A stretch of DNA of 61,909 nucleotides from an uncultured Candidatus Saccharibacteria bacterium (GTDB lineage: Bacteria; Patescibacteriota; Minisyncoccia; 2-02-FULL-40-12; GWA2-44-9). The stretch is from contig CAZZGH010000001.1 in assembly GCA_964653875.1 (NCBI GenBank), forward strand, positions 564 to 62,472. Reading direction: 5' to 3'. Below the pieces are notes generated by a model. That model made no database searches and had not been told where the DNA came from. It saw nothing but the letters and a program-made list of their open reading frames with translations. Positions 14,180-61,909 of this stretch are shown here, piece by piece. Numbering within the stretch: position 1 is the first letter of the stretch; every line of letters begins with the position of its first letter. The position numbers were made by a program, and so were the translations under genes.

Positions 14180-14186
14180 AATTATA

Positions 14187-14214
14187 AATCTGAGATAAAT
14201 TCTCAGATTTTTTA
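14187..14214 (+). terminator. rho-independent terminator
   Basis: 9-bp stem AATCTGAGA/TCTCAGATT, 5-nt loop, T-run. Confidence 0.7.
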
Positions 14215-14300
14215 TTGGATACTTACGCTTGTACAAAGGTAAAATTTATGGTAAAAACTTAAACAATCTCGTTCCTTAAAACAGAAAAGAGGGTGCAACG

Positions 14301-28518: not shown

Positions 28519-29502
28519 TTATAACACATGTATTCCATACAGGCTTTTTTCTATCTTTTCTTTATCTACGTTGCAAGTATCGCTTACAATATAGAGGGGC
28601 CTGCCTTTCACTTCATGAAACATTTTATAGAGATACTCTCCGACGACTCCCAATACTATCATCTGCAAGCTTCCCAAGAATAAAATCAGTATAACAATGG
28701 TGGAATTGCCCTTATTAAGCGGGTCGGGGTTGGTGTAATGATCCCAAAAAACATAGCCAGAAAAGATAATGCTGAACATGAACACAATTAAACCAACACC
28801 AAACGCCAGTCTTAGGGGAAAGGCAGAAAACGAAGTTATTCCATTAATAACAAAACCAAACAGCAATCTTTTAAATGAATATTTTGATTGTCCGTGTTTT
28901 CTGGCCTCCGCCGTATAGGGTAAATATTTTTTATTAAAACCGACCCACTGAACCATTCCCCGCAAAAATCTTTCTTTCTCCGGCAACCGCTTAATGACTT
29001 TCAAAACCGGCCTTTTGTATAATGTAAAGTCTGAAACATTTTTGAATTCAAGATCGGTAACATAACTCAAAAATTTATAAAATACCTTGCCCACATTCTC
29101 TCTGATAAAAGAATTTTGTTCGTTTGTGATTCGTTCTCCAATAACAATATCCGATCCGCCTTCGGCGTGTTTTATAAATTCTGGAATAATTCTGGGCGGA
29201 TGCTGCAAATCGCTGTCCATAGTTATAATAAGATCGCCCGCGGCAACATCCATACCGGCACTCAGAGCCGCTTGATGGCCGAAATTACGGGAAAAGCGCA
29301 ATACTTTTATTCGAGGGTCTTTGGAAGCGAATTGACTTAAAATTTCCGGGGTTTTGTCGTAAGAATTATCATCCACAAAAATTATTTCATAATTCTTATT
29401 TAGAGAGTCGCAAACAGAATAAAGCTCCCCCACCAATACCGGGAGAGTCTCCTCTTCATTAAAAACCGGTAAAACCAAAGATAAATCTATGTTTTTCGAC
29501 AT
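28519..29502 (-). CDS. polyprenyl-phosphate glycosyltransferase, GT2 (ArnC/GtrB/DPM1-like) with two C-terminal TM helices
   Basis: LSLVLPVFNEE, VDDNSYDKT, MDSDLQHPP, and C-terminal hydrophobic helices. ATG at 29502 is preferred over TTG 29505. Confidence 0.85.
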   Translation of the reverse strand: MSKNIDLSLVLPVFNEEETLPVLVGELYSVCDSLNKNYEIIFVDDNSYDKTPEILSQFASKDPRIKVLRFSRNFGHQAALSAGMDVAAGDLIITMDSDLQHPPRIIPEFIKHAEGGSDIVIGERITNEQNSFIRENVGKVFYKFLSYVTDLEFKNVSDFTLYKRPVLKVIKRLPEKERFLRGMVQWVGFNKKYLPYTAEARKHGQSKYSFKRLLFGFVINGITSFSAFPLRLAFGVGLIVFMFSIIFSGYVFWDHYTNPDPLNKGNSTIVILILFLGSLQMIVLGVVGEYLYKMFHEVKGRPLYIVSDTCNVDKEKIEKSLYGIHVL

Positions 29503-29534
29503 CAAAGTATATTACCATAAAAATACAGTTTTGT

Positions 29535-31187
29535 CTATATTCTTGAACAATCAAATACATAGGATTCTATTTTCTTATCTTGGAATTTTTTCAACAAAGA
29601 GCATCGGGTTATCAACGGCCAGTATCGGTCATTTTTATCAATAGCCGGAAAATCCACTATCATGTAGTGTCCCTTAAAAGTTGCCATCTTTTTCGTATAA
29701 TCTCTTTCCGGAGCCGTATAAAATCTGGATCCGTATTTACCGCTTTTTTTGAGATCATATGGCGCAATATCGTTATAGGTTATGACTTTTGTTATCGACG
29801 GCTCATTCAAAACATAGTTTAGCGTCTGACGAACTACTCTGTCCGGACTGCCATACAGGTCGCCACGCAAAAGCTCGTTTGCAAAAATAATATTATAGCC
29901 AAAACCGAATACTACAAATAGCGCAAAAATATAAGTGTTATATCTAGTTTGTCTTATTAATAAATAGCCCCCCAAAAGCGCGGCCGCGACAACCCACGAC
30001 CACAAAATAAACTGCGCCGAGAAATAAAACCCTATCGGCCCCGACCCGCTTGAAAAAGGAATTAAAAAATCAAAATTTAATTCTTTGACGTGATTAATGT
30101 AAGCGATTTTCGGATTTAACGGCAAAACGTCGTTAACTCTCAAAAGTATAATAAAAGCAAAGGCCAAGAAGACGCCAAGACCGACAACAAGTCCCCTAAA
30201 CAGGTGTTTCAAATTTTTCTTTTTATAAAAATAATACAACACATCACCGGTTATAATAACTGCAGGGACTATCAAAAACATGAAATAGCGTTCTATTGTT
30301 AATTTGGCAAAATCAATTAGCACCAGATAAAAAAGCAAATTAATAAAAACATAAAGATACCAAAATCTTTGCCTGTCTCTAATTTCTTTTATAAACAAGC
30401 CAACGAGCGCGGGCAGAGTTAACAAGGGGGACAACCAGACAAATGATTTGATAACCTTGAAAACAAGGTCAAGATAGGCCCTAGAGGCAAAATCAAAAGA
30501 CTTAAAATTCATCGCGTAATCTATTACCGCATGAAGGCGGGAATAATAAAAATAAAACAGCACAACCATCAACGCCAATATCGGTATACTCATTTTCAAA
30601 GCCCGCTTTATTACATTCAAAAAATTGTCCTTATGCTCATCACGCAAAACGAATACATAGTCCAACATCAACGCCGCCAGAAATAAGACAAAACTTGTCT
30701 TGGTAAATAATCCCCCGACGACGGCAACGCCTAACAAAAAAAGAGAACGTTTTTGGTGTTCTTTTTTGATAAAATTAGAGTACCCATAATAGCCTAGGAG
30801 AATGAAGAAGGGTAATATTGCCCCATCCATATCGACTTGAAGTCCGGCAACCAAGCCATAAACATTAACGGTAAAAAGAGTAATTGCGGTTAAAGCCGCT
30901 TTTTTATTCCCGGAAATATTTTTGACTACCAGATATATCAACCATAGATTAAGGAAACTGAAGAACACGGACAAAATTCTAAGATTATTAAAACCGACAA
31001 TGGCTCCGGTTAATTTCATCAGAATTAACGTCAAAGGCGGATGAGGAACATCTTCTCGCACTGTTTCGTCAGCCAATTGCACCCACCTGTGCTCATCCTG
31101 ATGGTAAACGAAATCAACACCCGAAAATCGCGTCACCAAGAAAATAATAATTACAACCAGAAAAGCCGCCTTATACTTTTTGCTCAT
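29535..31187 (-). CDS. GT-C-fold membrane glycosyltransferase (ArnT/PMT, GT39/83-like)
   Basis: 550 aa and polytopic. The first-loop acidic motif YHQDEHRW...VPHPPLTLILMKL resembles the DE...HPPL of ArnT/PMT_2. Confidence 0.65.
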   Translation of the reverse strand: MSKKYKAAFLVVIIIFLVTRFSGVDFVYHQDEHRWVQLADETVREDVPHPPLTLILMKLTGAIVGFNNLRILSVFFSFLNLWLIYLVVKNISGNKKAALTAITLFTVNVYGLVAGLQVDMDGAILPFFILLGYYGYSNFIKKEHQKRSLFLLGVAVVGGLFTKTSFVLFLAALMLDYVFVLRDEHKDNFLNVIKRALKMSIPILALMVVLFYFYYSRLHAVIDYAMNFKSFDFASRAYLDLVFKVIKSFVWLSPLLTLPALVGLFIKEIRDRQRFWYLYVFINLLFYLVLIDFAKLTIERYFMFLIVPAVIITGDVLYYFYKKKNLKHLFRGLVVGLGVFLAFAFIILLRVNDVLPLNPKIAYINHVKELNFDFLIPFSSGSGPIGFYFSAQFILWSWVVAAALLGGYLLIRQTRYNTYIFALFVVFGFGYNIIFANELLRGDLYGSPDRVVRQTLNYVLNEPSITKVITYNDIAPYDLKKSGKYGSRFYTAPERDYTKKMATFKGHYMIVDFPAIDKNDRYWPLITRCSLLKKFQDKKIESYVFDCSRI

Positions 31188-45484: not shown

Positions 45485-46477
45485 CTACTTTGCTCTCACA
45501 TATGACGGGATCTGATTTACTGATGTATAAGGAGTGCCTTGTTTATACCAGTTGAACTCATTACTATTGATGCAAAATACTTTTTTGAAAAAGTTAGGAT
45601 CGTCGGCAACCGCTTGATCTCCAGTCGTATTAACCCAATGCAGAATACCCGTATCTTCGCCGGTGGTTTCTACCCCATATACTTTTTTGTCATTCGTTTC
45701 ACAATTTCTGAAAAGACCGGAAGTAACAAGGGTGTCTCTTGTCGGAACAACTATGGTTTTAACTTTAGAAAATCCGCCAAGATGGCCGTAGAATTTAAAT
45801 ATCGCAGGATTTAAGAACAATCTCTTGTAGCCCCAGACGTTAACAATGTATACATCCGGATCGCTTGAGCCAGCGGCACTAATCACGTCACCTTCTTTTA
45901 ACTTTAAGGCAGACAGATTGGTGAACCCTTTTGAAGCTGGCGTCGGTCCTGCACCCATAGGAGAAGATACCGGTGTTAAAACGGGGGTTGTAGCGGGAGT
46001 TGGTGTCGGTGTAGCAGTTGGAGTTGGAGTTGGAGTTGGGGTCAAGGTTGGGCCTCCGCCACCGCCGCCATATGATACAACCGTAGAGCCTCCAACACTA
46101 GTAGAACCACAGGTAGTTGAACTGGGCGTTATTACTACTGTTGTTGTGACTGTTGCAGTAATAGTAAGCGATGATTTGTCTTCAGAGCATGAGGTCGCAT
46201 AAGATCCGTCGTTGTCCAACAATTTTCGGTCGGCTGATTGAAAGATAAAAGTTTGGCCGGAAGAAACTACAACAGTTACTTTGGCATTGGTTGTTGTTAC
46301 TGAATCCGCATCAGAACCACCCGCTATCACAAAGTTGCCCATATCAAGAGCAACCGTAGTGTCTTGAGGGAAATAAGCATCACCGACAGCTTTTGCCTGA
46401 TTAACTCCGATCAAAATTACTCCGCTAACCAAAAGGCTTATAATAAATAAATCAAATTTATTTTTTATTTGTTTCAT
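45485..46477 (-). CDS. secreted or wall-associated protein with a Gly5 plus Thr/Pro-rich linker
   Basis: ATG at 46477 (MKQIKNKFDLFIISLLVSGVILIGVNQAKA is signal-peptide-like). Linker GGGGGGPTLTPTPTPTPTATPTPTPATTPVLTPVSSP lies at about 45932-46069. A C-terminal globular domain follows. Confidence 0.7.
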   Translation of the reverse strand: MKQIKNKFDLFIISLLVSGVILIGVNQAKAVGDAYFPQDTTVALDMGNFVIAGGSDADSVTTTNAKVTVVVSSGQTFIFQSADRKLLDNDGSYATSCSEDKSSLTITATVTTTVVITPSSTTCGSTSVGGSTVVSYGGGGGGPTLTPTPTPTPTATPTPTPATTPVLTPVSSPMGAGPTPASKGFTNLSALKLKEGDVISAAGSSDPDVYIVNVWGYKRLFLNPAIFKFYGHLGGFSKVKTIVVPTRDTLVTSGLFRNCETNDKKVYGVETTGEDTGILHWVNTTGDQAVADDPNFFKKVFCINSNEFNWYKQGTPYTSVNQIPSYVRAK

Positions 46478-46478
46478 T

Positions 46479-46892
46479 TTATTTTGTTTGAGATTGTGCG
46501 CCCCGAATAGTATTAACAACCGGGGAATCGGTTTTTAAGTTTTCCCAGAATAAAACTTGATCTTGATTTATTATCATTTCGTCTTTTGGCCCATGAGGTT
46601 CATTCACACCAAGTTTGACAAGCTGGCCAGCTCCGTTTTCGTTTACTTTGACATAATAAACATCTGACAGAATCAAATAATCGGGACTTATGCTATTTAA
46701 ATGCCCAAAATATATCTGATCGTTTGTTAAAAATATAGCTTGATATGAATTAGGATCAATAAATTGATTTTTATCATATCGGCCGTATTTAGCTGAATCT
46801 ATCAGGGGCAATAGACTTAGAAATCCTACCACCACAGCCAGAATCGCAACGCTTACCGCCGTAATAATTGGAATGTGCTTGCTGGTAATCAT
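46479..46892 (-). CDS. small N-terminally membrane-anchored protein (137 aa)
   Basis: Single TM segment IPIITAVSVAILAVVVGFLSLL. The stop lies 1 nt from the next start. Confidence 0.55.
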   Translation of the reverse strand: MITSKHIPIITAVSVAILAVVVGFLSLLPLIDSAKYGRYDKNQFIDPNSYQAIFLTNDQIYFGHLNSISPDYLILSDVYYVKVNENGAGQLVKLGVNEPHGPKDEMIINQDQVLFWENLKTDSPVVNTIRGAQSQTK

Positions 46893-46910
46893 GAATTATA
46901 TTCCAATTAA

Positions 46911-47873
46911 TTACTGATGGCACTTTATATTATTAATAGTAAATTCCGTACCTCCGGCTAGGACACGTGCATAAACCCATGTTCCTCCGGCATCTTTAAA
47001 CTGAAAACATGTACCTTTGGTTGAAGCGGCGCTTCCGCCAAATAAAACACTTACTGTAGCAGTATTGGTACCCCCGCCAAATTCAGCCGAATAAATAGTA
47101 CTGGAACTGGCGACATTATGACCAACAACAAGATCAGTTTTGAAAAATCCTTGTGATGCCGAAACATAACCTACTGCTTCAAAATCGCTACCCACCGAAG
47201 CGGTACCATCAAAGAAAGACTTACCATCAACCTCTAAAGCGCCCGATATAAGCACATCATTTGAAGCATTTATATCTACGGTATGACCAGCAGTGCCGGT
47301 TCCAAATCTTGACCAGGTAACCGATGCGGTAGCACCAGGCGCACCAGCCACCTGAATCCCGTTTTGGGTGAAGAAGAAAGATGCCGATGCCGTACCTTGA
47401 ACTTCAAAAGTCGTTGAAGGTCCAGTACCACCAATTCCAACCTTGGCATCAAAGAAAACATTGTCATCAAATTCTACCAAGCCCGAAACTAAGATATCAT
47501 CTGCCGCAGCTAATGAGTGGCCCGTTGTCCCCGTTCCAAATCTTGAATAAGCTACCGATGCAGTAGCGCCAGGTACACCGGCTATTTGAATTGTATTTTG
47601 AGTAAAGAAATAAGATGCCGATGCCGTACCTTGCACTTCAAAAGTCGTTGAAGCGGCGGCGCCGACACCGACCCTTATTTTGGCAGTATCAACAGCAAGC
47701 ACGGTAATTGTACCAGCTGCATCTTGGAACAATGCCGCAGTAGCAGAACCAACCGTCTGTGTAAAAGTACCCGTAGTACTCATGTTAGTTCCAATAATAC
47801 TTGATGCATTAGCCATTCCAGTTAATGCCAAAGACAGAACGACCAAAAGAGAGATGACAAAATATTTTTTCAT
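46911..47873 (-). CDS. secreted Gly/Thr/Ala/Ser-rich protein with a tandem 78-aa repeat and a C-terminal Cys pair
   Basis: Signal peptide MKKYFVISLLVVLSLALTGMANA. Repeats STTFEVQGTASAS(Y/F)FFTQN..., and Cys289/Cys318. Confidence 0.7.
   Translation of the reverse strand: MKKYFVISLLVVLSLALTGMANASSIIGTNMSTTGTFTQTVGSATAALFQDAAGTITVLAVDTAKIRVGVGAAASTTFEVQGTASASYFFTQNTIQIAGVPGATASVAYSRFGTGTTGHSLAAADDILVSGLVEFDDNVFFDAKVGIGGTGPSTTFEVQGTASASFFFTQNGIQVAGAPGATASVTWSRFGTGTAGHTVDINASNDVLISGALEVDGKSFFDGTASVGSDFEAVGYVSASQGFFKTDLVVGHNVASSSTIYSAEFGGGTNTATVSVLFGGSAASTKGTCFQFKDAGGTWVYARVLAGGTEFTINNIKCHQ
47190..47651 (-). repeat. intragenic tandem duplication, period 234 bp (78 aa)
   Basis: AGATGCCGATGCCGTACCTTG(A/C)ACTTCAAAAGTCGTTGAAG occurs at 47379 and at 47613. 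Confidence 0.85.
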
Positions 47874-50244: not shown

Positions 50245-50988
50245 CTACTTACGAGTAAATAGGTTGAATCTGATGATGTGCCAAATCGCGGCCAATCCGT
50301 CTTTCCAGTTAATTTTTTTGCCCTCTTTGTACGTGCGCCCCGAGTAAGAAATCGGCACTTCTGTAATTCTTAAATTAAATTTCCCCACCCAAGCCGTAAG
50401 TTCAGGATCAATGCCAAATCTTTTAGATATAAGATGGGGGTAGATTTGATTTATTGAGTCCCTGGAAAAAACCTTATAACAAGTGTACATATCGGTTAAC
50501 CTAACTCCGCTGAAAACATTGGACATCCAATTCAAGACCCTGCTAAATAAGTAGCCGTGCTTATAAACGATAGTGTTATTGCGCCCCAACTCAAGAAAAC
50601 GAGAACCATAAACAACATCTGCCACACCATCCATAATCGACCTAATCAGAGCAGGATAATCCTGAGGGTCATATTCCAAATCAGCATCTTGGATTAAAAC
50701 AATGTTTCCCGTCGCCTCCTGAAATCCCCTTTTTACGGCCGCTCCCTTGCCAGAGTTCTTATCCAAAAAAACCACCTTATACCCCACCTGTGGATTAACG
50801 ACACTGAATGTCGTTATATTAAAACTGTGGATAACTTCTCGGGAACCATCCGTAGAGCAGTCATCAACAAGAATTATCTCTTTTTCAAGCGGTAGCTCTA
50901 CGCTTTTCACGGCAGAAATAAGCCGGGTCAGCGTTTTTTCTTCATTAAAAACCGGTATAATTATGCTTAACTTTTTATATTCCATCAT
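50245..50988 (-). CDS. glycosyltransferase family 2 (soluble, DPM1/GtrB-like catalytic domain)
   Basis: LSIIIPVFNEEKTL, VDDCSTDGS, QDADLEYDP. Confidence 0.85.
   Translation of the reverse strand: MMEYKKLSIIIPVFNEEKTLTRLISAVKSVELPLEKEIILVDDCSTDGSREVIHSFNITTFSVVNPQVGYKVVFLDKNSGKGAAVKRGFQEATGNIVLIQDADLEYDPQDYPALIRSIMDGVADVVYGSRFLELGRNNTIVYKHGYLFSRVLNWMSNVFSGVRLTDMYTCYKVFSRDSINQIYPHLISKRFGIDPELTAWVGKFNLRITEVPISYSGRTYKEGKKINWKDGLAAIWHIIRFNLFTRK
50795..50840. repeat. near-palindrome TTAACGACACTGAATGTCGTTA plus TGTGGATAACT (DnaA-box-containing 11-mer)
   Basis: Related at the DNA level to 61845-61900 but lying in a different reading frame. Confidence 0.75.
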
Positions 50989-52298: not shown

Positions 52299-53495
52299 AT
52301 GCAAAACGAAACCACCCCATACATAACTAGTACAGGAGACCTCAAAAAGAGGATTTTATTCGTAATTACACTATCAGAATTAGGGGGAGCCCAAAGATTC
52401 TTATCCAACCTCATTTCTCATCTAAACAGAGATGTTTACGAATTCCTGGTGGCAGTTGGTTCAAGCGGAAACGGAGATTTTTTGAGAGTTTTAAGAGCCG
52501 AGGGCATCCCCCATCAAACACTTAGATTTCTAGAACGTGAACCGACATTAAGCGACATCAAAGCCGTTTTTGAAATCCGCAATTTAATCAAAAACTATCG
52601 TCCCGATGTTTTATTTTTAAATAGTTCTAAGGCCGGATTTATCGGTTCTTTAGCGGTAAAATTCCCGACAAGAATAAATGCTCTAAAAGTTATTTATAGA
52701 ATAGGCGGCTGGTCATTCAATGATCCGTGGCCAAGGTGGAAAAACTGGCTTTGGATAACCCTGGAACGGTTAAGCGCAAAATGGAAAGACATTATAATCG
52801 TAAATAATCAGCACGATCTGGATCAGGCAAAAAAACTTAAAATAAGACCCCGAATGCAAATGGTTCTGGTTCATAACGGCATTGAGGTGTATAAGTTAGA
52901 TCTTTTGCAGCCGGGAGAAGCGCGGACAAAGTTGCTTGAAAAGGCCGCGAAATATTATGGTACAAACATTCCAGCCAAAAACATTATAGGCACAATCGCC
53001 AATTTTTACCCAACCAAGGGGTTGGAGTATCTTATCGGGGCTGCTGATTATTTTAACAACAATGACGACGTTGTTTTCTTTATTATTGGAGACGGGGAAT
53101 TAAGACCGGAACTGGAAAAAATGATACAAGAAAAAGGATTGGGAGAGAAAGTTTTTCTTTTGGGTCGGATTCCGGACGCATACCGATTTCTGCCGGCCTT
53201 TGATGTTTTCGTTCTCCCGTCGGTAAAGGAAGGTTTCCCTTGGGCTTTAATTGAGGCAATGTCGGCCAAATTGCCAGTTATTGCTACTGATGTCGGAGCA
53301 GTACCGGAAATAATTGATGACCACAAAAATGGTATGCTTGTCAAACCCAAAGACCCGGCTGGTTTAGCGCATAAAATTAAAGAAATTCTTGCAAACGACC
53401 GGATAAAAAACGAGCTGGGAATACAGGCTCATCAGACAGTACTTTTTAAGTTCGAGCTTGATAAAATGGTAAAAAAGATTGAGGAACTACTCTAA
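52299..53495 (+). CDS. glycosyltransferase, GT-B fold (GT4)
   Basis: ATG at 52299 (MQNETTPY...KRILFVITLSELGGAQ) is preferred over the ORF-track start at 52176, which would read through the structured intergenic region. C-terminus VFVLPSVKEGFPWALIEAMSAKLPVIATDVGAVPE. Confidence 0.8.
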   Translation: MQNETTPYITSTGDLKKRILFVITLSELGGAQRFLSNLISHLNRDVYEFLVAVGSSGNGDFLRVLRAEGIPHQTLRFLEREPTLSDIKAVFEIRNLIKNYRPDVLFLNSSKAGFIGSLAVKFPTRINALKVIYRIGGWSFNDPWPRWKNWLWITLERLSAKWKDIIIVNNQHDLDQAKKLKIRPRMQMVLVHNGIEVYKLDLLQPGEARTKLLEKAAKYYGTNIPAKNIIGTIANFYPTKGLEYLIGAADYFNNNDDVVFFIIGDGELRPELEKMIQEKGLGEKVFLLGRIPDAYRFLPAFDVFVLPSVKEGFPWALIEAMSAKLPVIATDVGAVPEIIDDHKNGMLVKPKDPAGLAHKIKEILANDRIKNELGIQAHQTVLFKFELDKMVKKIEELL

Positions 53496-55765
53496 AGGTT
53501 TCTGCCGAGACTCCTTAAGAAAACTCTGGCATCAGCCTCAAAAGATGGATCAACCTGAACCGCCTTGCGAGCCATTGCCACAGCTTCGTCTATCCTACCC
53601 AAATTAACATAAGCAGTTGCCAACGATGCATAATATTGAGGATTTTTGGGGTTCAGCGGAATAATTCTCTCAAAAGCATTTGCAATTTTAGCAAAATCGT
53701 TGGTTTTAAGATAAAAATTTATTAATCTTAAATAATCTTGTTCATTCGGACTGTATCTGTTTTCACCAGTCAATGCTCTCTCCATATCTTTGATCCCGCC
53801 CATGTCACCACTTTCCAACTTAGCCGCTCCAAGATACCAATAAGATAAGCCCGTTTTAGGATTAAGATCCACGGCTTTTTGGAAAAACTCAATAGCTTTG
53901 GGGAAATCCTTTTTGTTAAGGTAAGCTTGGGCTATCTCATAATAAGTTCTCACAAAAGTCGGCGAAAGTTCCAACGCCTTCATCGAATAATATAAGGCCT
54001 TGTCATTATGCGGCGACCTCGGATCATCTTTGCCAAGTACGACATTTAATCGCGAAGCATAAAGATACGGAAGATTATCAATGGAATTTTCTTTGATATT
54101 TTTATCGACTTCCAATAAAGCAAGTTCATAAGCATCTCTCACCACTTTTTCTTTCACACTCGGACCGCCTGCGCCAATAAGATATTGGGCAAATCTGTGC
54201 CTATATTCATACTTGCCTGGCACACTATAAGACAAAGCTTCTTTGTATTTTGCTAAAGCACCATCAAAATCACTAGCCCATCCGCGAACAATCGCCCTGG
54301 TAGTTGCGTAATTGGCCTTAGCCGGTAAAATGTTTGTTTTATATATCAGTATAGATACTAAAACAATCAAAATCATGGCTACTAAATTTGTAAATGACCC
54401 GCTTGTTGTAACCGTTGGCCGAGCAACTTGAGTCTCTTTTTTAATATCGAAATTAAGAAAGGAGACAAAACCAGTAATTGTAAAAAATGTAATAAAATTG
54501 GCCGAGGTGTCGAAAATAAAGGAATTGTGAATTATATATGCAATAATTGCCGGTATAAGACCTATGCCGTAAATGGCAAAATCATTATTTTTTAACATCT
54601 TGCGTAAAAAAGCAAATAAAGACGCAAAAATATTTATATAAGCCAGAAGTCCGACGATCCCCATGGTAACAAGAATCTCCACGAACATATTATGAGCTCT
54701 GTCAAAAAGCGTTTCTGCACCTGAACCGACAAAAAAATTTGGATTAAAATGTTTTGAAAAAGGAATATTAAAGTTTTCCGGCCCCCAACCGAGAAGAATA
54801 GCCTTGGGGCTTTCAATCCAACCCTTAAGTCCGGCTTGCCATGCCCAAAAACGAGTTTGAACAGTAATCGAAGTAATCGAAAGATCCGTTATCCTGCTCA
54901 AATACTTGGATCCCTTAATAAAAGAAGAATCGCCAAACAAAGACGCGAACACAATAAATAAAATTATCAAACCAATCAAGGTATTGAAAACTGATTTTCC
55001 AATACGAGATTTGGTATATCTCATCCACAGAAAAGCAAAGACCGTAAGCCCCACCACATAACCCAAAACTGAACCTCTTACTGCAGTTGTCAAAACAGCG
55101 ATAGAGGTGGCAACGAAAGCAAATAGATAAAACACCTTGCTTGAAGGCTGATAAAAACTTAGTTTTTGAGTATTTTTAAGATTCAAATACATTAGCAGGG
55201 ACAGGAATACGACAAGTAGCTGGTAGCCGGCAAATAAGGCCGGATTGCCGATAGTGCCAAATATTCTTTCTCTGCCCCCGGAACCGACAAAAAACTGAAT
55301 ATCTGTTTTCTGGCCAAATCCGTAAAACGCCGATAAAACCCCCGCAAAAATAGTCAAATCCAACAATCTTTTCCAGTGTTCTCTTTTTGTAAGCACAGAA
55401 GTTGAAATTATGAAAAATATAAAATAATGCCAAAATGTCCAAAGTCCGCCCATTCTCTCAAGCGTACCCCAAAAACTTGGATATTTTAAAACACTAGTTA
55501 AAGTAGCCAAAGTAAACGCCAAAACAAAAAACAGGAAAGCCCAAAATATTCTATCCCGACGAGGCAGATAGGAACGTTCTTTGAGAATTAAGATTAAATA
55601 AGCTCCCCCCAAAATCTCAATTAAACTCCTAAAAACTATAACCTTCCCAAAATGAAATGGGGAAATAAAATCTTTCCAAATAACAAGGGAGATAAACGCC
55701 GTCAGATAAATCCCAAAGCGAATAAATTTTGCCAAATTTGACTCCCGTGAGTCTTGTTTTTGCAT
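53492..55765 (-). CDS. O-antigen-ligase-like (Wzy_C) polytopic membrane protein fused to C-terminal TPR repeats
   Basis: RIFGTIGNPALFAGY and DRAHNMFVEILVTMGIVGL match the Wzy_C signature. The last ~270 aa are TPR (AQAYLNKKDFPKAIEFFQKAVDLNP, among others). Confidence 0.8.
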   Translation of the reverse strand: MQKQDSRESNLAKFIRFGIYLTAFISLVIWKDFISPFHFGKVIVFRSLIEILGGAYLILILKERSYLPRRDRIFWAFLFFVLAFTLATLTSVLKYPSFWGTLERMGGLWTFWHYFIFFIISTSVLTKREHWKRLLDLTIFAGVLSAFYGFGQKTDIQFFVGSGGRERIFGTIGNPALFAGYQLLVVFLSLLMYLNLKNTQKLSFYQPSSKVFYLFAFVATSIAVLTTAVRGSVLGYVVGLTVFAFLWMRYTKSRIGKSVFNTLIGLIILFIVFASLFGDSSFIKGSKYLSRITDLSITSITVQTRFWAWQAGLKGWIESPKAILLGWGPENFNIPFSKHFNPNFFVGSGAETLFDRAHNMFVEILVTMGIVGLLAYINIFASLFAFLRKMLKNNDFAIYGIGLIPAIIAYIIHNSFIFDTSANFITFFTITGFVSFLNFDIKKETQVARPTVTTSGSFTNLVAMILIVLVSILIYKTNILPAKANYATTRAIVRGWASDFDGALAKYKEALSYSVPGKYEYRHRFAQYLIGAGGPSVKEKVVRDAYELALLEVDKNIKENSIDNLPYLYASRLNVVLGKDDPRSPHNDKALYYSMKALELSPTFVRTYYEIAQAYLNKKDFPKAIEFFQKAVDLNPKTGLSYWYLGAAKLESGDMGGIKDMERALTGENRYSPNEQDYLRLINFYLKTNDFAKIANAFERIIPLNPKNPQYYASLATAYVNLGRIDEAVAMARKAVQVDPSFEADARVFLRSLGRNL

Positions 55766-55797
55766 GATTAATACAATAGCACCAATCTAGATGTCTT

Positions 55798-57141
55798 TCA
55801 ATTAGTTCTTGTGCTGTTTGGAGTTACCCTATATATCATTCCAGCAGAATCATCTGACACATAAAGTGCTCCGTCCGAGCCGAATTTCAAATCAACCGGC
55901 CGGCCTGATATTTTGCCATCTGCCCCCAGCCATCCCGATATAAAATCCTCTGGCTTTTGAGATAGAACCTTGCCGTTGACATCTAAATCGTACCTTACTA
56001 TTTTGTACCCGACAGGAACACTCGAATTCCAAGACCCATGAAACGCCACCAAAAGGTCCCCTGCCCATTCTTTTGGCCATCCATTGCCGGATGGAATAAA
56101 CGCCAAGCCCAAAGGAGCTGAATGGGCTTGCACTTGTATGATTGACGGCTCTGTCTGTGTGCAATCGGAAGACAGATCCTTCCTTTCTATTTTTTCGGGA
56201 TTAAATGTTTTATCTCTCACTTGGTTGCCGTAACAAAATGGCCAACCATATTTTTTGGCAGTGAACTTATCTTCCGATCCTGCAACTTTAATAATGTTTA
56301 TTTCGTCCGGCGGCAGATTATCCCCCAAATTATCGCGCCCCATTTCGGTTGCCCAAATTTCTTTGGTTTTCGGATGAAAAGTAAAAAATACGGAGTTTCT
56401 TAATCCACCGGCGAATTCGGCCGTAAATGTTTTTCCCTCAGGGTCAGTTTCTAACATTGCCGCCCTTTTCCAGGTAGTAGTTTCAACACAAACGTCGCAA
56501 GACGAACCGACGCTTATATATAACTTGACTTCAGAAAGAGTGGTATCGCCTTTTTTCCCCGGAAGTAGGGAAGTTTTTCTAAAATTAGGGCCGAATAATA
56601 TCGTTCTTGTGAAATGTCTCCCATCAGCGGGAAAATTGGTAATATTCTGACCTTTATCGGACATTACTGTTCCACTTTTAATATCATATGCATAACGAGC
56701 CACCTGCTGTGTCTCCGCTACATACAAATAAATAGTTTCCCCGGACTTATAAAATGCCAAGCCATGGGGTTTGTTCAATCCGCTTAGTATGGTCGTTTTT
56801 GCTTCAGCGATGCCGTCCTTATCTTTATCTTTTAAGAAAACCACTTTTCCGGATTTAGTTTCACTGACAAACGTTCTCCCCAACGAATCAAAAGTTATAA
56901 CTCTCGGATCTTCCAGATCTTTCGCAAAAGTATTAATTTTAAACCCCTCCGGAAGTTTAAGGTATGAAAGCGATGAGTCGCTGGTTTGGGATACGATGGG
57001 TTTTTTAAACTGAGGAAGATCGTATCCAGCCAATTTTTTTAATAAGTAAAAATCGGTAAAAAATAAGTAAGCCAAAAAGACCAAAATTACAATAAAAAAA
57101 GCCTTTAACTTAAAACTAGAAGTTAAAAATTTAAAATTCAT
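55798..57141 (-). CDS. membrane-anchored PQQ-dependent sugar (glucose/sorbosone) dehydrogenase-like beta-propeller
   Basis: N-terminal TM segment, PHGLAF, and GRDNLGDNLPPDEINII, which are typical of the GSDH family. Confidence 0.75.
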   Translation of the reverse strand: MNFKFLTSSFKLKAFFIVILVFLAYLFFTDFYLLKKLAGYDLPQFKKPIVSQTSDSSLSYLKLPEGFKINTFAKDLEDPRVITFDSLGRTFVSETKSGKVVFLKDKDKDGIAEAKTTILSGLNKPHGLAFYKSGETIYLYVAETQQVARYAYDIKSGTVMSDKGQNITNFPADGRHFTRTILFGPNFRKTSLLPGKKGDTTLSEVKLYISVGSSCDVCVETTTWKRAAMLETDPEGKTFTAEFAGGLRNSVFFTFHPKTKEIWATEMGRDNLGDNLPPDEINIIKVAGSEDKFTAKKYGWPFCYGNQVRDKTFNPEKIERKDLSSDCTQTEPSIIQVQAHSAPLGLAFIPSGNGWPKEWAGDLLVAFHGSWNSSVPVGYKIVRYDLDVNGKVLSQKPEDFISGWLGADGKISGRPVDLKFGSDGALYVSDDSAGMIYRVTPNSTRTN

Positions 57142-58705
57142 ATACCAAAAATGTGTACCCTATTCTATCAATGGGTTGATATAAAGATAACCAGTCTAAA
57201 TTTTTATCCTTTGATTTTTGACTTAACTCTCTTAGCCTGACCAGGAAATGGATATTCACGGCATATTTTCCAGACGGATTTAAAAACGATTTTTCTACAG
57301 AAGGTATAATGTTTTTAATCCCGTAATATCCCGGATCAAAAAATATATTAAAATCAGAATTTACTACCTTCATTCCGGGGTGGTTTTTTTGATATTCCGC
57401 AAGACGTTTCAAATCATGCTTCCACTCCAAGTTTGAGTCATCCAAATATTTATAACCGTTAACCGGTCCCCCAATAAATTCATTGAAATAAGCCAGATAA
57501 TCAGGGTGGATACTCACGGCAGAAAAAATATACCACAACCCTAAAACAATGACAACAACCGAAATTGACACAGATTTGACGCCGTCCCATTTTATTCTAA
57601 TCACCCGAACCAATCCTCCCGCAAAAAGAATTAGAAAGGGGAAAGCCGGCAATAAATAACGAATACTAAGATTATGAGCTTTTAAGCTTGTGACAATCGA
57701 GAAAAAAATCATAGGCAGAAATATAAACAACTTGTCACGATTATTGATATGTAACTTCCTATAGAAAACAAGGGCAGCTGTAAAAGCAATAAGCGCGGGA
57801 ATGGGGGTCTTTATCAAAAATGCCTCCAAAAAATAATACCACCAGCCGTTTTTTGAAAACTGGCCGTTCAAATAGAAATTGTAAGAACTATTTGCATCTG
57901 CATAAATTGTATTCACACCCCTTAAGTAAAACCCCAGGTCTGTCGGCAGAAGGTAAGAAAAATATACAACAATAGCGGCCGGAAAAATTATTATGGCTGT
58001 TATTTTGACAGATCGGCGCATGATTTGATAAAAATCATTTTGCTTAGATTTAATGTTAATAAAAATTAAAAATAAAATTACCGGTAGAAACAGGACAGCC
58101 GAGAATTTAGAGCTTAATGCCAAACCAAGAAACAGTCCGGAATAAATTAAATATCTGTTAAAATTGGTTCTAACAAACTTCCATAAATAATAGAGAGCGG
58201 CAAACGAGAAAGAAGATAAAGCCAAATCGGTGGTTACAAATTGAGCGTGGGCAATAACATTCGGCATAAAGGCGTAAAGAAACAAGGACAGAGCACCTGC
58301 TTGGGGACTGAATATTTCGGAAGTCCATCGATAAACATAAAACCCCAATAAAACAGACAAGAGCATAACGGGCAATCTCCCCCAAAACAGCAATTTGTCA
58401 ACGTCATTAGAAAGCAGAAATTTTTTGCCGAATATCCACTCATTTTTAAAAGGACCAGATAAATCAGGGTCTTGGCTGTCAAACTTTAAATCCATAAACA
58501 GCAAAGGAAAGGAAGAGATTAATTTAACAAAAGGCGGGTGTTGAGGATTTAAAGTAATTTGTCCCATTTTCCAATAAGAGTAGCCACTTGGAAGATGGGT
58601 TATTTCGTCGTTTGCTGGACTAAAATTTTGTGCGCTAAAAAACGGCAGTAGAAATGTAATCGCCAACAAAATTGATACTATAATCTTTATTTTCACGCCA
58701 TTCAT
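57131..58705 (-). CDS. GT-C-fold glycosyltransferase (PMT_2/ArnT, GT39-like)
   Basis: NDEITHLPSGYSYW...NPQHPPFVKL first-loop motif. Polytopic, 524 aa. Confidence 0.75.
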   Translation of the reverse strand: MNGVKIKIIVSILLAITFLLPFFSAQNFSPANDEITHLPSGYSYWKMGQITLNPQHPPFVKLISSFPLLFMDLKFDSQDPDLSGPFKNEWIFGKKFLLSNDVDKLLFWGRLPVMLLSVLLGFYVYRWTSEIFSPQAGALSLFLYAFMPNVIAHAQFVTTDLALSSFSFAALYYLWKFVRTNFNRYLIYSGLFLGLALSSKFSAVLFLPVILFLIFINIKSKQNDFYQIMRRSVKITAIIIFPAAIVVYFSYLLPTDLGFYLRGVNTIYADANSSYNFYLNGQFSKNGWWYYFLEAFLIKTPIPALIAFTAALVFYRKLHINNRDKLFIFLPMIFFSIVTSLKAHNLSIRYLLPAFPFLILFAGGLVRVIRIKWDGVKSVSISVVVIVLGLWYIFSAVSIHPDYLAYFNEFIGGPVNGYKYLDDSNLEWKHDLKRLAEYQKNHPGMKVVNSDFNIFFDPGYYGIKNIIPSVEKSFLNPSGKYAVNIHFLVRLRELSQKSKDKNLDWLSLYQPIDRIGYTFLVYEF

Positions 58706-60516
58706 AGGTCTCTAATTTTTTTCTCCGCTATTTTTATCATCTCTTCTATCCCCGAGGCTTTATTTCCGAAAGTCTGCGCATTTTTCAGGTAAACTAATGC
58801 CTGCTCGTAATCTTTTTTAACAAAATAGGCAGTCCCGACTACCGCACTCACATCGGGGTGGCTGAAATTGGAACTAAAGTATTTATTTATCATATCTAAC
58901 GCTTTATCCGGTTTATTCAAGGCAATTTGTATGTAAGAGTATCTGACCACGTATTCAGTCGTGGAATAAAAATTAATAACCGTGAGAAAGTTTTCCCCGG
59001 CTTCCTGGAGCCGTCCCTGATTTAGATATAGCTCCGCTAAATTTATGGACGTATCTGTTGCATTTGGATTCAGTTCCAAAGATTTTTTAAATTTTTCTTC
59101 AGCTAAGACATAGTTCCCTTCATGATCGGCAACAACTCCAAATAGGTTTTGCAGATGGGAATTGTTCTCATATACTCTTCGGGCTATTTCAAGTTGTTCT
59201 TTTGCCAAGTCCCACTCATCCGCTCTTATATACACGCCGGCTAGTGCCGTTCTGGTTATTAAGCTATTCGGCGACTCTTTAACTGTCGCGTTAAATAATG
59301 TTCTACTGTCATGCCAGTCCTTATTTCTAATAAAAGTTCTTACTCCATAGAAAACCACAAGAAAAACCAATAAAGAGAAGCCGACAATTTTATAAAACCT
59401 CCTCTTGTTTAAAAATTTATCTATAACCAAGGCCGAAACAACCGCAAATCCGAGAGAGGGAAAATACATAAGCCGCTCCCCCATTATTGTCCCAATCGGA
59501 ACCATAAGATTCGATATCATCAAATATGGAAATAAAAACATGGCAGCCGCGAAACTGAAACCAATACGAGTTTTACATAAAATCAAAACAACAAGGCCGG
59601 CCAATAAAATTAAGCCCGTGATTGACGGCCACGAAGTAAATATGTTTTTAACGACAGGAATAGCATTGTAAGAATAATCCGCGGACAAATGAACGGGCCA
59701 AATAAGTTTTCCGGCATACAAAACAAGCACCTTTAGCGCCGTAAAAATTCTTTCCGGCAAAGAGACAAATATCAGTATATTCGAGACGATAGTTGTATTA
59801 ATTTCCCCGGCAAAATACCGGCCAAGAGCCATATATCTCAAAAATCCATATAAGGCGAGAGGGGCAATAAAGAATAGGTTATCAGTTACGGCTTTCCACC
59901 AATTTTTTTTAGAAAACAGTATGTCTATATAGAAAACAATCGGCAGAACCATTAGAGCTACCTCTTTGCTCATCATAGCAAAGAGGAAAGCCACCGCGGC
60001 TAATATCTTGTCATTCTTTGAAAGTAGATAAATCGTTGCCAGAGACCAAAAGAAAGCCAATAATTCTGCCCTACCCACAATTGAAGTTACGGCTTCGGTG
60101 TGGATTGGGTGAAGCAGGAATAAAAGAGAAGAAATATAAGCGACAGGCCGGGATTTTAAAAACCAAATAACCAGCCAAAAAACAAGAAACGAGTTCAGGG
60201 CGTGAATAAGAATATTTACCGCATGAAAACCGACAGGGGAAGAGCCAAAAATATTATGATTTAAAGAATACGTGGCCATCGTAAACGGACGATAAAGACC
60301 TGATTTGGGGGTATTTTGATGATAAGGAGAAACAAACAAATTAAAAAAATTACCGGGATCTCTTAGGTCGCCCCTGTTTTGAACCACCGTTACATCATCA
60401 AAAACAAACTCGCCGGAAATACCATTCCCGAAAACCAAAAAAGACAAAATAACCGAAATTAAAAAAACCAAAAACATCTCATGTCTTTTTTGAAAATTGA
60501 TAAATTTAAAATTCAT
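58702..60516 (-). CDS. TMTC-like GT-C O-glycosyltransferase (DUF1736-type) with C-terminal TPR repeats
   Basis: FVFDDVTVV and LYRPFTMATYSLNHNIFGSSPVGFHAVNILIHALNS match the TMTC/PMT2 loop pattern. The last ~200 aa are TPR. Confidence 0.75.
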   Translation of the reverse strand: MNFKFINFQKRHEMFLVFLISVILSFLVFGNGISGEFVFDDVTVVQNRGDLRDPGNFFNLFVSPYHQNTPKSGLYRPFTMATYSLNHNIFGSSPVGFHAVNILIHALNSFLVFWLVIWFLKSRPVAYISSLLFLLHPIHTEAVTSIVGRAELLAFFWSLATIYLLSKNDKILAAVAFLFAMMSKEVALMVLPIVFYIDILFSKKNWWKAVTDNLFFIAPLALYGFLRYMALGRYFAGEINTTIVSNILIFVSLPERIFTALKVLVLYAGKLIWPVHLSADYSYNAIPVVKNIFTSWPSITGLILLAGLVVLILCKTRIGFSFAAAMFLFPYLMISNLMVPIGTIMGERLMYFPSLGFAVVSALVIDKFLNKRRFYKIVGFSLLVFLVVFYGVRTFIRNKDWHDSRTLFNATVKESPNSLITRTALAGVYIRADEWDLAKEQLEIARRVYENNSHLQNLFGVVADHEGNYVLAEEKFKKSLELNPNATDTSINLAELYLNQGRLQEAGENFLTVINFYSTTEYVVRYSYIQIALNKPDKALDMINKYFSSNFSHPDVSAVVGTAYFVKKDYEQALVYLKNAQTFGNKASGIEEMIKIAEKKIRDL

Positions 60517-60543
60517 CGAAAATTTTAAATCGAAAATTAAAAA

Positions 60544-61909
60544 TTATTTCCTAATCTGTTCGATAAGATTCCTCATCAACTCGCCAGTTTGAGGATCCAG
60601 TTCGGCATATTTTAATCCTTCTTGCAAATCTTTCAATGCCTGCTTTTTATTATTTAGAGCAACATAAACTAGCGCCGAGTTATAATAAACACGGGGATTA
60701 TTCGAGAGAAGGATTTTAAGCTTCTCTATATTCTCAATGGCTTTGGCCAAATTGCCTTGCTGGGCATAAATAACGGAAAGATTTTGATAAGGATAGTAAA
60801 AATTAGGATTTATTTCTATTGCTTTTTCGTATAATTTAATGGCTCCATAGATATCTCCTCTGGATTGCAAAATAGTTCCTAGATTAAAATGGGGTTCTGC
60901 AAATATATCTTTTTGAGAGGCGGCTATCTTATAATATTTCTCGGCATTTCCCATGTCATTCATGTTGTAATAAATATTCCCTACATTATTATTTATCCTG
61001 GAACTGTCCGGTTCATATTTTAGGATATCAAGATAAAAAGCAAGCTGGTTGCCCCACAGAAGATTGCGTTGAATAGACTGATAAGCAAAGAATGAGAGAT
61101 ATGCAACCAATGCAGCGATTACCAAGGTTCGACAGAGTTCCCAAGGAGTGGGATTCCCACTCCGAGAACCTTGAATCTTCAAAAAGGTCGAACCTTTAAA
61201 ATCCAAAAGTTTCACAAGATAAAAAGAAACTATGAGCCAAAAACCGACCATCGGCAAATAGAGCCAGTGTTCATATATCAATGCATTTATAGGAGTGATG
61301 CCGGAAACAGGACCAAGGGGAACAAAAAACAAAGCCACGCCTAAAAACCATACTCGATATCTTGATATTTCGAAATTTCTAAACAAGACACCGTTGACCC
61401 TTTCTTTTTTGTATAAATGCCTAAGCCATGCCAGCAGAGTAACCAATGCGACTCCGACTATCCAAACCGGCCACTGAAACAGCGAGGTATAGACAATGGC
61501 GCTTCGTTCCATATGAAGCCCGGCGGGAATTATCAAAAGTTTTAGATATTCCCAAAGTATAGGCAGAAAGGTAAATACTCTGACATATAGATTTTCAGAA
61601 TAAATATTGGGTTCAGCGTAAAAATTAAGAGTATTCTGAAAATTTAAAACCGTAAGCCGCAAGATGCCGTAGGAAATAATTACCGTAAAATACGGCCAAG
61701 TTTTTATGATACCCCGTTTGATGGATTTCAAAAATCGTTCTTTTGAAACAGTAGAGACATAAAAAGCGAGAGCTAAAAATGGAAAGATTATGGCAGTTTC
61801 CCGGCTTAAAAGAGCAAATATCAGAAAAACACAAGAAAGCACTTTTAACGACATTGAATGTCGTTGTGGATAACTCTCTCTAACGACATTCAATGTCGTT
61901 AATTCTGAT
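60544..61909 (-). CDS. membrane protein with C-terminal TPR repeats (TMTC-like paralog), 5' end probably outside the window
   Basis: The reading frame stays open to the window edge (the ORF-track start at 61893 is TTG). TM region followed by TPR (NLGTILQSRGDIYGAIKLYEKAIEINP). Confidence 0.65.
   Translation of the reverse strand, partial: SELTTLNVVRESYPQRHSMSLKVLSCVFLIFALLSRETAIIFPFLALAFYVSTVSKERFLKSIKRGIIKTWPYFTVIISYGILRLTVLNFQNTLNFYAEPNIYSENLYVRVFTFLPILWEYLKLLIIPAGLHMERSAIVYTSLFQWPVWIVGVALVTLLAWLRHLYKKERVNGVLFRNFEISRYRVWFLGVALFFVPLGPVSGITPINALIYEHWLYLPMVGFWLIVSFYLVKLLDFKGSTFLKIQGSRSGNPTPWELCRTLVIAALVAYLSFFAYQSIQRNLLWGNQLAFYLDILKYEPDSSRINNNVGNIYYNMNDMGNAEKYYKIAASQKDIFAEPHFNLGTILQSRGDIYGAIKLYEKAIEINPNFYYPYQNLSVIYAQQGNLAKAIENIEKLKILLSNNPRVYYNSALVYVALNNKKQALKDLQEGLKYAELDPQTGELMRNLIEQIRK
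61845..61900. repeat. two inverted copies of the 21-bp near-palindrome TTAACGACATTGAATGTCGTT flanking GTGGATAACTCTCTC
   Basis: Copies at 61845-61865 and 61881-61900. They differ only at the central base. TGTGGATAA (61865-61873) is a consensus DnaA box. Confidence 0.85.

Follow-up and report, generated by a model that had tools for sequence, protein, structure and literature searches.

The surfaces of candidate-phyla bacteria, which live attached to other cells, have hardly been studied. The locus described here raises the question of what such a bacterium does with a row of outward-facing membrane enzymes that handle sugars and carry tetratricopeptide repeats (TPR), and what a sugar dehydrogenase of the pyrroloquinoline quinone (PQQ) type does among them. 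It lies at positions 53492-61909 of the 61,909-nucleotide stretch analysed (the window), which forms one end of contig C1 of an uncultured Candidatus Saccharibacteria assembly (GCA_964653875.1; 805 kb, 92% complete).

The best explanation overall is that the operon encodes an extracytoplasmic glycosylation battery which works on lipid-linked sugars, with the co-encoded surface proteins as acceptors; taken as a whole, this reading has in our judgement an even chance of being right. Its core, namely that the locus encodes a battery of transferases which depend on polyprenyl sugars, work outside the cytoplasm and each bear a TPR arm, is considered highly probable. The enzyme set is a variant of the known glycosylation systems of the GT-C and Wzy_C types, built from large uncharacterised bacterial families.

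Organisation of the operon

The five minus-strand open reading frames (ORFs) of the block are designated g1 to g5, and the three ORFs at 45485-47873 are designated u1 to u3. A first-pass annotation, made from the sequence alone, had described five consecutive co-oriented genes and assigned them to families. Inspection of the ORFs recovered all five on the minus strand with exactly the same coordinates, and searches of Pfam and NCBIfam bore out the family assignments (lengths in amino acids, aa; GT, glycosyltransferase):

53492-55765, minus strand: g1, 757 aa, Wzy_C domain and TPR
55798-57141, minus strand: g2, 447 aa, N-terminally membrane-anchored propeller of the sGDH/AA12 type (PQQ/Ca family)
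57131-58705, minus strand: g3, 524 aa, PMT_2/ArnT-like GT-C with a soluble C-terminal domain, without TPR
58702-60516, minus strand: g4, 604 aa, TMTC-like GT-C with an extracytoplasmic C-terminal TPR region
60544-61909, minus strand: g5, C-terminal 454 codons, open at the window end; second, divergent TMTC-like GT-C with TPR
61855-61909, no strand assigned: 55 bp shared exactly with the end of contig C28; assembly break inside g5

Neighbouring genes overlap by 4 nt (g4/g3) and 11 nt (g3/g2), or are separated by 27 nt (g5 and g4) and 32 nt (g2 and g1). The truncation of g5 in the window is due to the contig end only. Contig C28 (8.8 kb) has an exact 55-bp overlap (C28 8705-8759) with the reverse complement of the window end, and encodes the first 172 residues of g5 at C28:8190-8705, including FWDDED, KSNYYRP and RGD. 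Joining of C1 and C28 gives a g5 protein of 626 aa, and the orthologs in the related loci L002-L005 measure 589-617 aa. Moreover, C28 carries four further co-oriented genes upstream of g5, coding for three secreted proteins and a multi-pass TPR protein of 693 aa. The battery of five genes is real, but its extent had been underestimated: the block makes up the 3' two-thirds of an operon that continues on C28. Promoter-like sites within the block were no commoner than in shuffled sequence, so that the operon boundaries are drawn from gene spacing and synteny only.

The relatives found with g4 are Patescibacteria metagenome-assembled genomes (MAGs), which bear the labels Yanofskybacteria, Patescibacteria group and 'Saccharibacteria'. 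Synteny of the block g5-g4-(g3)-g2-g1 extends to four related MAGs of Patescibacteria, at 60-80% identity. The complete order (surface protein, 400-aa protein, 211-aa protein, 693-aa protein, g5, g4, optional g3, g2, g1) is kept in L002, L003 and L005, and shortened in L004. What stands between g4 and g2/g1 varies: g3 in the window, L002 and L005 (g3 being absent from L003 and L004), homologs of all three of u1-u2-u3 in L003 (9879-12379), and no gene in L004. Furthermore, L002 has an extra TMTC-like paralog with TPR (12746-14434) between g2 and g1.

TMTC-like and PMT_2 enzymes

The ligand-binding motifs of the TMTC proteins have been defined as M1 to M7: DD, SHKSYRP, RxD, KE(T/Q)xxT, DW, PxxP and ERxxY (PMC7801869). 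Six of the seven (M1-M5 and M7) are kept in g4, as DD (40-41), KSGLYRP, RAE, KE (184-185), DY (280-281) and ERLMY (347-351). Among 40 homologs with 51-82% identity, D40-D41, R76-P77, R149-x-E151, K184-E185, D280-Y281 and E347-R348-x-x-Y351 are invariant. The loop motifs FVFDD and YRPxT...GFHxVNxLxH, singled out in the first-pass annotation, are present in g4 as GEFVFDDVTVV and LYRPFT...GFHAVNILIH, and the catalytic acidic loop residues, whose loss had been contemplated, are intact.

The AlphaFold2 (AF2) model of g4 (pLDDT 86.9, pTM 0.82) has a basic N-terminus and 11 membrane helices, followed by a TPR superhelix at residues 404-603 (395-600 by Pfam). The modelled topology is that of TMTC, with the TPR region and the catalytic loops predicted together outside the cell. 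A candidate TMTC_DUF1736 loop (PF08409), which in TMTC proteins is expected between transmembrane (TM) helices 7 and 8, scores 26.9 bits by hmmscan and 27.9 bits in a six-frame genome search, the cut-off being 27; many close homologs of g4 are annotated with it.

In all, g4 shares with the eukaryotic TMTC1-4 (CAZy family GT105; protein O-mannosyltransferases of the ER) a borderline PF08409 loop, the motifs DD, (K)S..YRP, RxE, KE, D-[YW] and ERxxY, the 11 TM helices and a non-cytoplasmic C-terminal TPR region. Unlike these, it is a bacterial protein of ~600 aa with ~5 TPR pairs, in which M5 reads DY and not DW, M4 is partial (T/Q and T are missing) and PxxP (M6) was not recognised, and its score is only at the Pfam cut-off. 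The family comprises at least 961 database homologs, mostly proteins of Patescibacteria MAGs, named 'DUF1736 domain-containing', 'TPR protein' or, by JGI, 'protein O-mannosyl-transferase'. The bacterial TMTC homologs had been called essentially uncharacterised, and in the literature searched no paper on a characterised bacterial TMTC-like enzyme was found.

The second TMTC-like protein, g5, is paralogous to g4 (25% identity over ~600 aa, E 3e-34) and keeps DD, KSNYYRP and RGD, but it is further diverged from TMTC1-4 and lacks M4, M5 and M7: SRET, LHMERS and YEHWLY (in short, SRET, HMERS and EHWLY) stand for SKE.., SADYS and ERxxY. The replacements are conserved in the orthologs, and such clade-specific changes suggest a different donor or metal environment, not decay. 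Two enzymes of the locus are clearly related to the TMTC O-mannosyltransferases which, in humans, modify cadherins.

The third GT-C, g3, matches PMT_2 (56.6 bits) and PMT (33.3 bits), both above cut-off, and has at least 9 TM helices. Its first outer loop carries an [NS]-D-E motif conserved in 3 orthologs; at the same place E. coli ArnT has PDETRYAE. An hhalign comparison of the g4-family profile with E. coli ArnT gave a weak alignment (E 0.018), in which the region of the SKE lysine is aligned with ArnT around residue 200. Against the sequences of the PDB, no match was obtained for g3 or for an N-terminal profile of g4, and full-length g4 and g1 matched through their TPR only (phmmer/hmmsearch). 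Likewise, when the complete AF2 models of both proteins were compared with the PDB by Foldseek, only TPR proteins (OGT, SPY, APC/C, designed CTPR) appeared among the 50 matches listed.

Wzy_C-TPR protein

The Wzy_C domain of g1 (55.6 bits, cut-off 31.7) covers residues 215-377, and Pfam places the TPR at ~580-745. The motif H-[NSQ]-x9-G-x2-[GTY] is found at H358 (as H-N-x9-G-x2-G) in 40/40 members of the family, the counterpart in E. coli K-12 WaaL being H338; R230, R305 and D355-R-A-H-N359 are also invariant. The AF2 model (pLDDT 83), together with hydropathy, predicts the usual 12 TM helices, a TM13 at 456-478 and then a TPR arm of ~275 aa outside. Thus, g1 resembles WaaL and the O-oligosaccharyltransferases of the PglL/WsaB type in its Wzy_C domain and in its histidine motif, with which the helix following the large outer loop begins, and differs from them in the 13th TM helix, in the 275-aa TPR arm and in belonging to a genome without LpxC. 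No significant alignment between the g1-family profile and E. coli WaaL was given by hhalign. At least 762 homologs of ~750 aa exist in Patescibacteria, under the name 'O-antigen ligase family protein'.

LpxC was not found in the 92%-complete genome, with four control genomes bearing lipopolysaccharide (LPS) all above cut-off. This excludes a lipid A-core acceptor, and g1 is consequently not a classical O-antigen ligase. Two initiating phosphoglycosyltransferases of the Bac_transf family are encoded in the genome, on contigs C9 and C11, so that polyprenyl-diphosphate-linked glycans can be made. Judging from its sequence, g1 is predicted to be an oligosaccharyltransferase or ligase acting on a non-LPS acceptor, or a polymerase.

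A promoter-like site, TTGAAA-17-(TG)TATTGT, was observed at 55773-55801 (minus strand), in the 32-nt gap before g1. Its end precedes the ATG at 55765 by 7 nt, and this leaderless-type geometry may mean that g1 has its own promoter.

Donor side and the recurrent two-gene module

Two GT2 genes of the window are candidates for loading sugars onto polyprenyl phosphate:

50245-50988, minus strand: DPM1/AglJ/PpgS-like GT2, candidate polyprenyl-phosphate-sugar synthase
28519-29505, minus strand: PgfS/ArnC-like GT2 with C-terminal TM helices, second candidate polyprenyl-phosphate-sugar synthase

For the former, the best NCBIfam matches are AglJ, ArnC, PgfS, PpgS and Dol-P-hexose transferase; the latter matches PgfS with E 1e-77 (261 bits, cut-off 500) and ArnC with E 4e-48. 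Both genes score below the equivalog cut-offs of the polyprenyl-phosphate-sugar synthase families. A GtrA-like flippase candidate is encoded on contig C20, outside the locus.

The association between the two kinds of gene was examined in 301 sampled Patescibacteria genomes, of which 39 have a TMTC-like domain (one locus per genome), with 32 loci centred on g2 homologs as control. A GT2 homolog lies at most three genes from the TMTC-like gene in 14/39 loci, compared with 1/32 control loci (Fisher p=5.6e-4), and is directly adjacent to it in 10. A DPM1-like GT2 and a TMTC-like GT-C with TPR thus form a recurrent module, which is the strongest general statement that the data allow. Its logic is the same as that of DPM1 with TMTC or PMT, and of PgfS with PgfM1, and this compact pair of genes is a candidate for the first bacterial TMTC-type activity.

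In streptococci, a pair made up of a GT2 and a GT-C O-glycosylates Ser/Thr-rich regions of surface proteins of the same cluster (Pgf; GtrB/PgtC2). The present locus is like these systems (PgfS/PgfM1/PgfE/PgfM2 and GtrB/PgtC2) in combining candidate GT2 enzymes for undecaprenyl-phosphate sugars, of which the one at 28519-29505 is PgfS-like, with GT-Cs predicted to face outward. It differs from them in that the streptococcal GT-Cs are of the YfhO type without TPR, whereas those of the locus are not of the YfhO/GtrC type and belong to the TMTC and PMT_2 types with TPR tails, accompanied by a Wzy_C-TPR protein and a PQQ dehydrogenase.

Candidate acceptors and the 693-aa family

Proteins that could serve as acceptors are encoded at two places, on C28 and at one position of the window:

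45485-47873, minus strand: u1-u2-u3, three secreted or anchored proteins with no Pfam domain; candidate acceptors

The C28 proteins are a T/S/G/A-rich protein of 1310 aa with an N-terminal hydrophobic segment, a 400-aa protein with a signal peptide and an S/P-rich linker, and an anchored 211-aa protein with a P/S/T linker. u3 carries PTLTPTPTPTPTATPTPTPATTPVLTP, a (T/P)-rich linker. Neither u1-u3 nor the three secreted proteins of C28 matched any Pfam or NCBIfam model. A domain of 154 aa is common to the C-terminal part of u3 and the 1310-aa protein, with 75% identity. A third, diverged copy of this domain (33% identity) was noticed on contig C9 of the genome itself (G000), about 2.5 kb from one of its two Bac_transf transferases, the two features being at 12565-13113 and 15559-15918.

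Secreted proteins with P/S/T linkers are co-operonic with the transferases in the window lineage and in all the relatives, and large S/T-rich proteins adjoin g4-like genes in L074 and L075. As a general rule for TMTC-like genes, flanking by large S/T-rich secreted proteins was also considered, and found statistically unsupported (p=0.17; counts below).

The 693-aa protein of C28 (L057, 6109-8190, plus strand) is encoded directly upstream of g5; besides ~12 TM helices it has a soluble domain and a TPR tail. Its family counts at least 1797 database homologs, all named 'hypothetical', and no Pfam model covers the membrane part. The invariant loop motifs of the family are QD.GRH.K.G...W.T, N.FS.TE, F.NHHWLSEV, R...RPE, YGY.I.ENQ, FNNFD.G and FVD.RPEAY. 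The family profile gave no match in the PDB and no hhalign alignment with the g4-family profile. The family may represent undescribed outward-facing enzymes that handle glycans.

Proposed mechanism and alternative explanations

From homology, the following sequence of events can be proposed. In the cytoplasm, the GT2 enzymes encoded at 50245-50988 and 28519-29505 would load single sugars onto polyprenyl phosphate, and the lipid sugars would be flipped outward, possibly by the GtrA-like protein of C20. On the outer side, g3, g4 and g5, whose acidic loop motifs face outward, would use them as donors. In parallel, the many GT4 enzymes of the 62-kb island would build an oligosaccharide on polyprenyl diphosphate, with initiation by the two Bac_transf transferases encoded elsewhere in the genome, and g1, with its histidine motif of the WaaL/PglL type, would transfer or polymerise it. 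The TPR tails of g1, g4, g5 and the 693-aa protein, placed outside by the models, would most likely hold the acceptor. Acceptors would most likely be the 1310-aa protein, the two P/S/T-linker proteins of C28 and u1-u3, an assignment with slightly better than even prospects. Finally, g2, which by its sequence would be a functional PQQ/Ca sugar dehydrogenase on the outer face, would need scavenged PQQ and some electron acceptor, and could be either a member of the pathway or a passenger gene.

The suggestion of protein acceptors made in the first-pass annotation is plausible and remains our best guess. It is favoured by the co-operonic secreted proteins with P/S/T linkers, the domain common to u3 and the 1310-aa protein, the S/T-rich neighbours in L074 and L075, the action of the TMTC and PMT families on proteins, and the streptococcal systems described above. 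Several observations weigh against the proposal as a whole. g4 borders on the PF08409 cut-off, and g5 had no PF08409 match in the Pfam scan or in the six-frame search; the fold and profile searches described above did not tie the membrane domains to solved GT-C or WaaL structures. Large S/T-rich secreted neighbours occur at 8/39 TMTC-like loci and 3/32 control loci, which is not significant phylum-wide (p=0.17). The TPR regions, moreover, match NCBIfam models of the polysaccharide-export scaffolds PgaA and PrsT, and also of PilW; in polysaccharide export, too, TPR domains serve as scaffolds.

The last two observations favour an alternative in which the acceptor is not a protein: a cell-wall glycopolymer or lipoglycan, polymerised or ligated by g1, would be decorated with single sugars by the GT-Cs outside the membrane, with the TPR serving as assembly scaffold or glycan-binding element. 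Mycobacterial GT-Cs of the Emb, Aft and Pim families act on arabinogalactan and lipoarabinomannan, and those of the YfhO/GtrC type on teichoic acids and O-antigen. Homologs of YfhO glycosylate teichoic acids in Bacillus and Listeria, according to work cited in 10.1101/2024.05.05.592596. The block, furthermore, ends a 62-kb island of polysaccharide-type genes, with at least 10 GT4/GT2 enzymes, sugar-nucleotide enzymes and an ABC exporter. Nevertheless, this alternative is held to be on the unlikely side, since the characterised proteins nearest to g4 (TMTC1-4) and to the Pfam families of g3 (PMT) are protein O-mannosyltransferases, and the P/S/T-linker secreted proteins share the operon in all relatives and, in L003, lie inside the block. 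A related doubt concerns g1, which might be a Wzy-type repeat-unit polymerase, the final attachment being left to another enzyme, e.g. an LCP-type ligase elsewhere. Pfam Wzy_C also covers polymerases, and g1 has a weak NCBIfam match to Wzy_C proteins of the IctB type; on the other side stand the invariant WaaL-type motif, equivalent to H338 of the E. coli enzyme, and the extra TM helix with its extracytoplasmic TPR arm, which fits capture of an acceptor better than processive polymerisation. Wzy_C enzymes such as WsaB and WsfB, besides, are O-oligosaccharyltransferases of Gram-positive S-layer glycoproteins, and a polymerase role for g1 is accordingly rated as rather improbable.

PQQ-type dehydrogenase

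In Pfam, g2 matches TrAA12 (53.6 bits), DUF7133 (44 bits) and GSDH (42 bits), all above cut-off, and it has one N-terminal TM helix. Its best PDB match is TrAA12 (6I1T), over the full length (E 4e-15). The residues of TrAA12 binding PQQ and Ca, and those involved in catalysis, have been named (PMC6881810), and were transferred to g2 through the 6I1T alignment, with the offset fixed by D152/H153:

TrAA12 Arg57: g2 R80
TrAA12 His153 (catalytic base): g2 H176
TrAA12 Arg220/Asp221: g2 R248/N249 (Arg/Asn, as in sGDH)
TrAA12 Ser240: g2 G268 (Gly, as in sGDH)
TrAA12 Asp242: g2 D270
TrAA12 His330: g2 H340
TrAA12 His350: g2 H368

The mapped positions are invariant in 30 homologs, H176 alone being conserved less strictly, in at least 90% of them. 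With the PQQ, Ca and catalytic positions of TrAA12 kept, g2 is not, by sequence, the pseudo-enzyme lacking cofactor residues that had been envisaged as a possibility. Residues 212-221 contain G-S-S-C-x-x-C-x-E (C215/C218), which is invariant in 30/30 Patescibacteria homologs and absent at the aligned position of TrAA12; the two cysteines may serve structure, as a disulfide, or redox chemistry, as a pair close to the active face. In short, g2 resembles the sGDH/AA12 enzymes (A. calcoaceticus sGDH, E. coli YliI, TrAA12 and CcPDH) in its six-blade propeller, catalytic His, Arg/Asn dyad, Ca ligands, PQQ-binding His/Arg residues and conserved disulfide pair. It is unlike them in the N-terminal membrane anchor, the S-S-C-x-x-C insertion, the want of a cytochrome partner domain and the setting in a GT-C operon.

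It had been suggested that this enzyme modifies the transferred glycan, and the idea is sustained only weakly. Its family is present in 37/301 Patescibacteria genomes, 10 of which also have a TMTC-like gene. In two distant, unrelated families, G155 (L050) and G279 (L058), the g2-family gene lies directly beside a TMTC-like gene, the number of such adjacencies expected by chance being ~0.06 (an estimate from the nine co-occurring genomes). The link between g2 and GT-C genes is thus recurrent, weak and far from obligatory. A general coupling of the family to GT-C or TPR genes was considered and rejected, as the gene stands alone, with no GT-C or TPR neighbour and no conserved neighbours of any kind, at 34/36 other loci.

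This absence of neighbours also counts against a part for g2 in the battery, as do several further results. A TMTC-like gene is lacking in 27/37 g2-positive genomes. PqqC and PqqE, as markers of PQQ synthesis, were not detected in the genome itself; nor was PqqC in the 36 other g2-positive genomes, the PqqC search having had no positive control. Five ORFs of the genome contain CxxCH, none of which looks secreted, and no c-type cytochrome is evident. The lack of PqqC/PqqE and of a secreted CxxCH protein raises the question of how g2 would turn over, and how a PQQ-dependent dehydrogenase works in organisms without PQQ synthesis and respiratory chain. PQQ scavenging, as in E. coli, is a possible route to the cofactor.

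Two explanations of g2 have therefore to be compared. It may be unrelated to the glycosyltransferases, a general aldose dehydrogenase like E. coli YliI or sGDH, oxidising free environmental or host sugars with scavenged PQQ; we consider this as probable as not. The breadth of the family, the scarcity of TMTC-like genes in the genomes which have it and the 34/36 loci devoid of conserved neighbours all agree with it, and the characterised relatives oxidise free monosaccharides at C1 (PMC6881810). It accounts less well for the position of g2 between the GT-C genes and g1, which is kept in all four relatives even though the surroundings vary (g3, u1-u3, extra TMTC paralog), for the 11-nt overlap with g3, and for the recurrence of the TMTC-like adjacency in L050 and L058. 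Participation of g2 in the glycosylation pathway, in some form, is possible and rather unlikely.

In its fullest form, such participation would make g2 a working part of the machinery, oxidising an extracellular sugar on polyprenyl phosphate or on a surface protein and dependent on external PQQ, which by analogy is conceivable and quite improbable. In mycobacteria, DprE1/DprE2 act as an oxidoreductase on a polyprenyl-phosphate sugar and supply the GT-C arabinosyltransferases; DprE1 is a flavoenzyme of unrelated fold, and serves as a model for g2 by analogy only. If g2 did tailor the glycan, a keto, epimerised or acidic sugar would be made that cytoplasmic pathways do not supply, and a cofactor supplied by the host or community would be needed to complete the surface glycan. 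If, in addition, the TMTC-type TPR transferases acted on the co-encoded proteins, TMTC-style protein O-glycosylation would have to be seen as an ancient bacterial system in which redox tailoring is one step.

Gene content of the glycan island

The rest of the window encodes GT4 and GT2 enzymes, sugar-nucleotide enzymes, B12-radical-SAM enzymes, an ABC exporter and more multi-pass membrane proteins. Consisting essentially of glycan-biosynthesis genes, the window together with C28 exceeds 70 kb, ~9% of the 805-kb genome. A genome of 0.8 Mb thus invests more than 70 kb in glycan genes, among them those of at least four TPR-armed, outward-facing membrane enzymes. Multi-pass putative extracytoplasmic transferases number at least seven: g1, g3, g4, g5, the 693-aa protein of C28 and the putative GT-C proteins at 29535-31187 and 17483-19471, the last two having no match in Pfam or NCBIfam.

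A comparable string of genes was observed in L074 (G279 C1, 1093-13145), from a distant Patescibacteria genome. It starts with an S/T-rich protein of 869 aa and a g4-like GT-C, followed by a Wzy_C protein without TPR, and continues with homologs of the GMD, cupin, methyltransferase and DegT genes of the window. Part of the logic of the island is therefore conserved across families.

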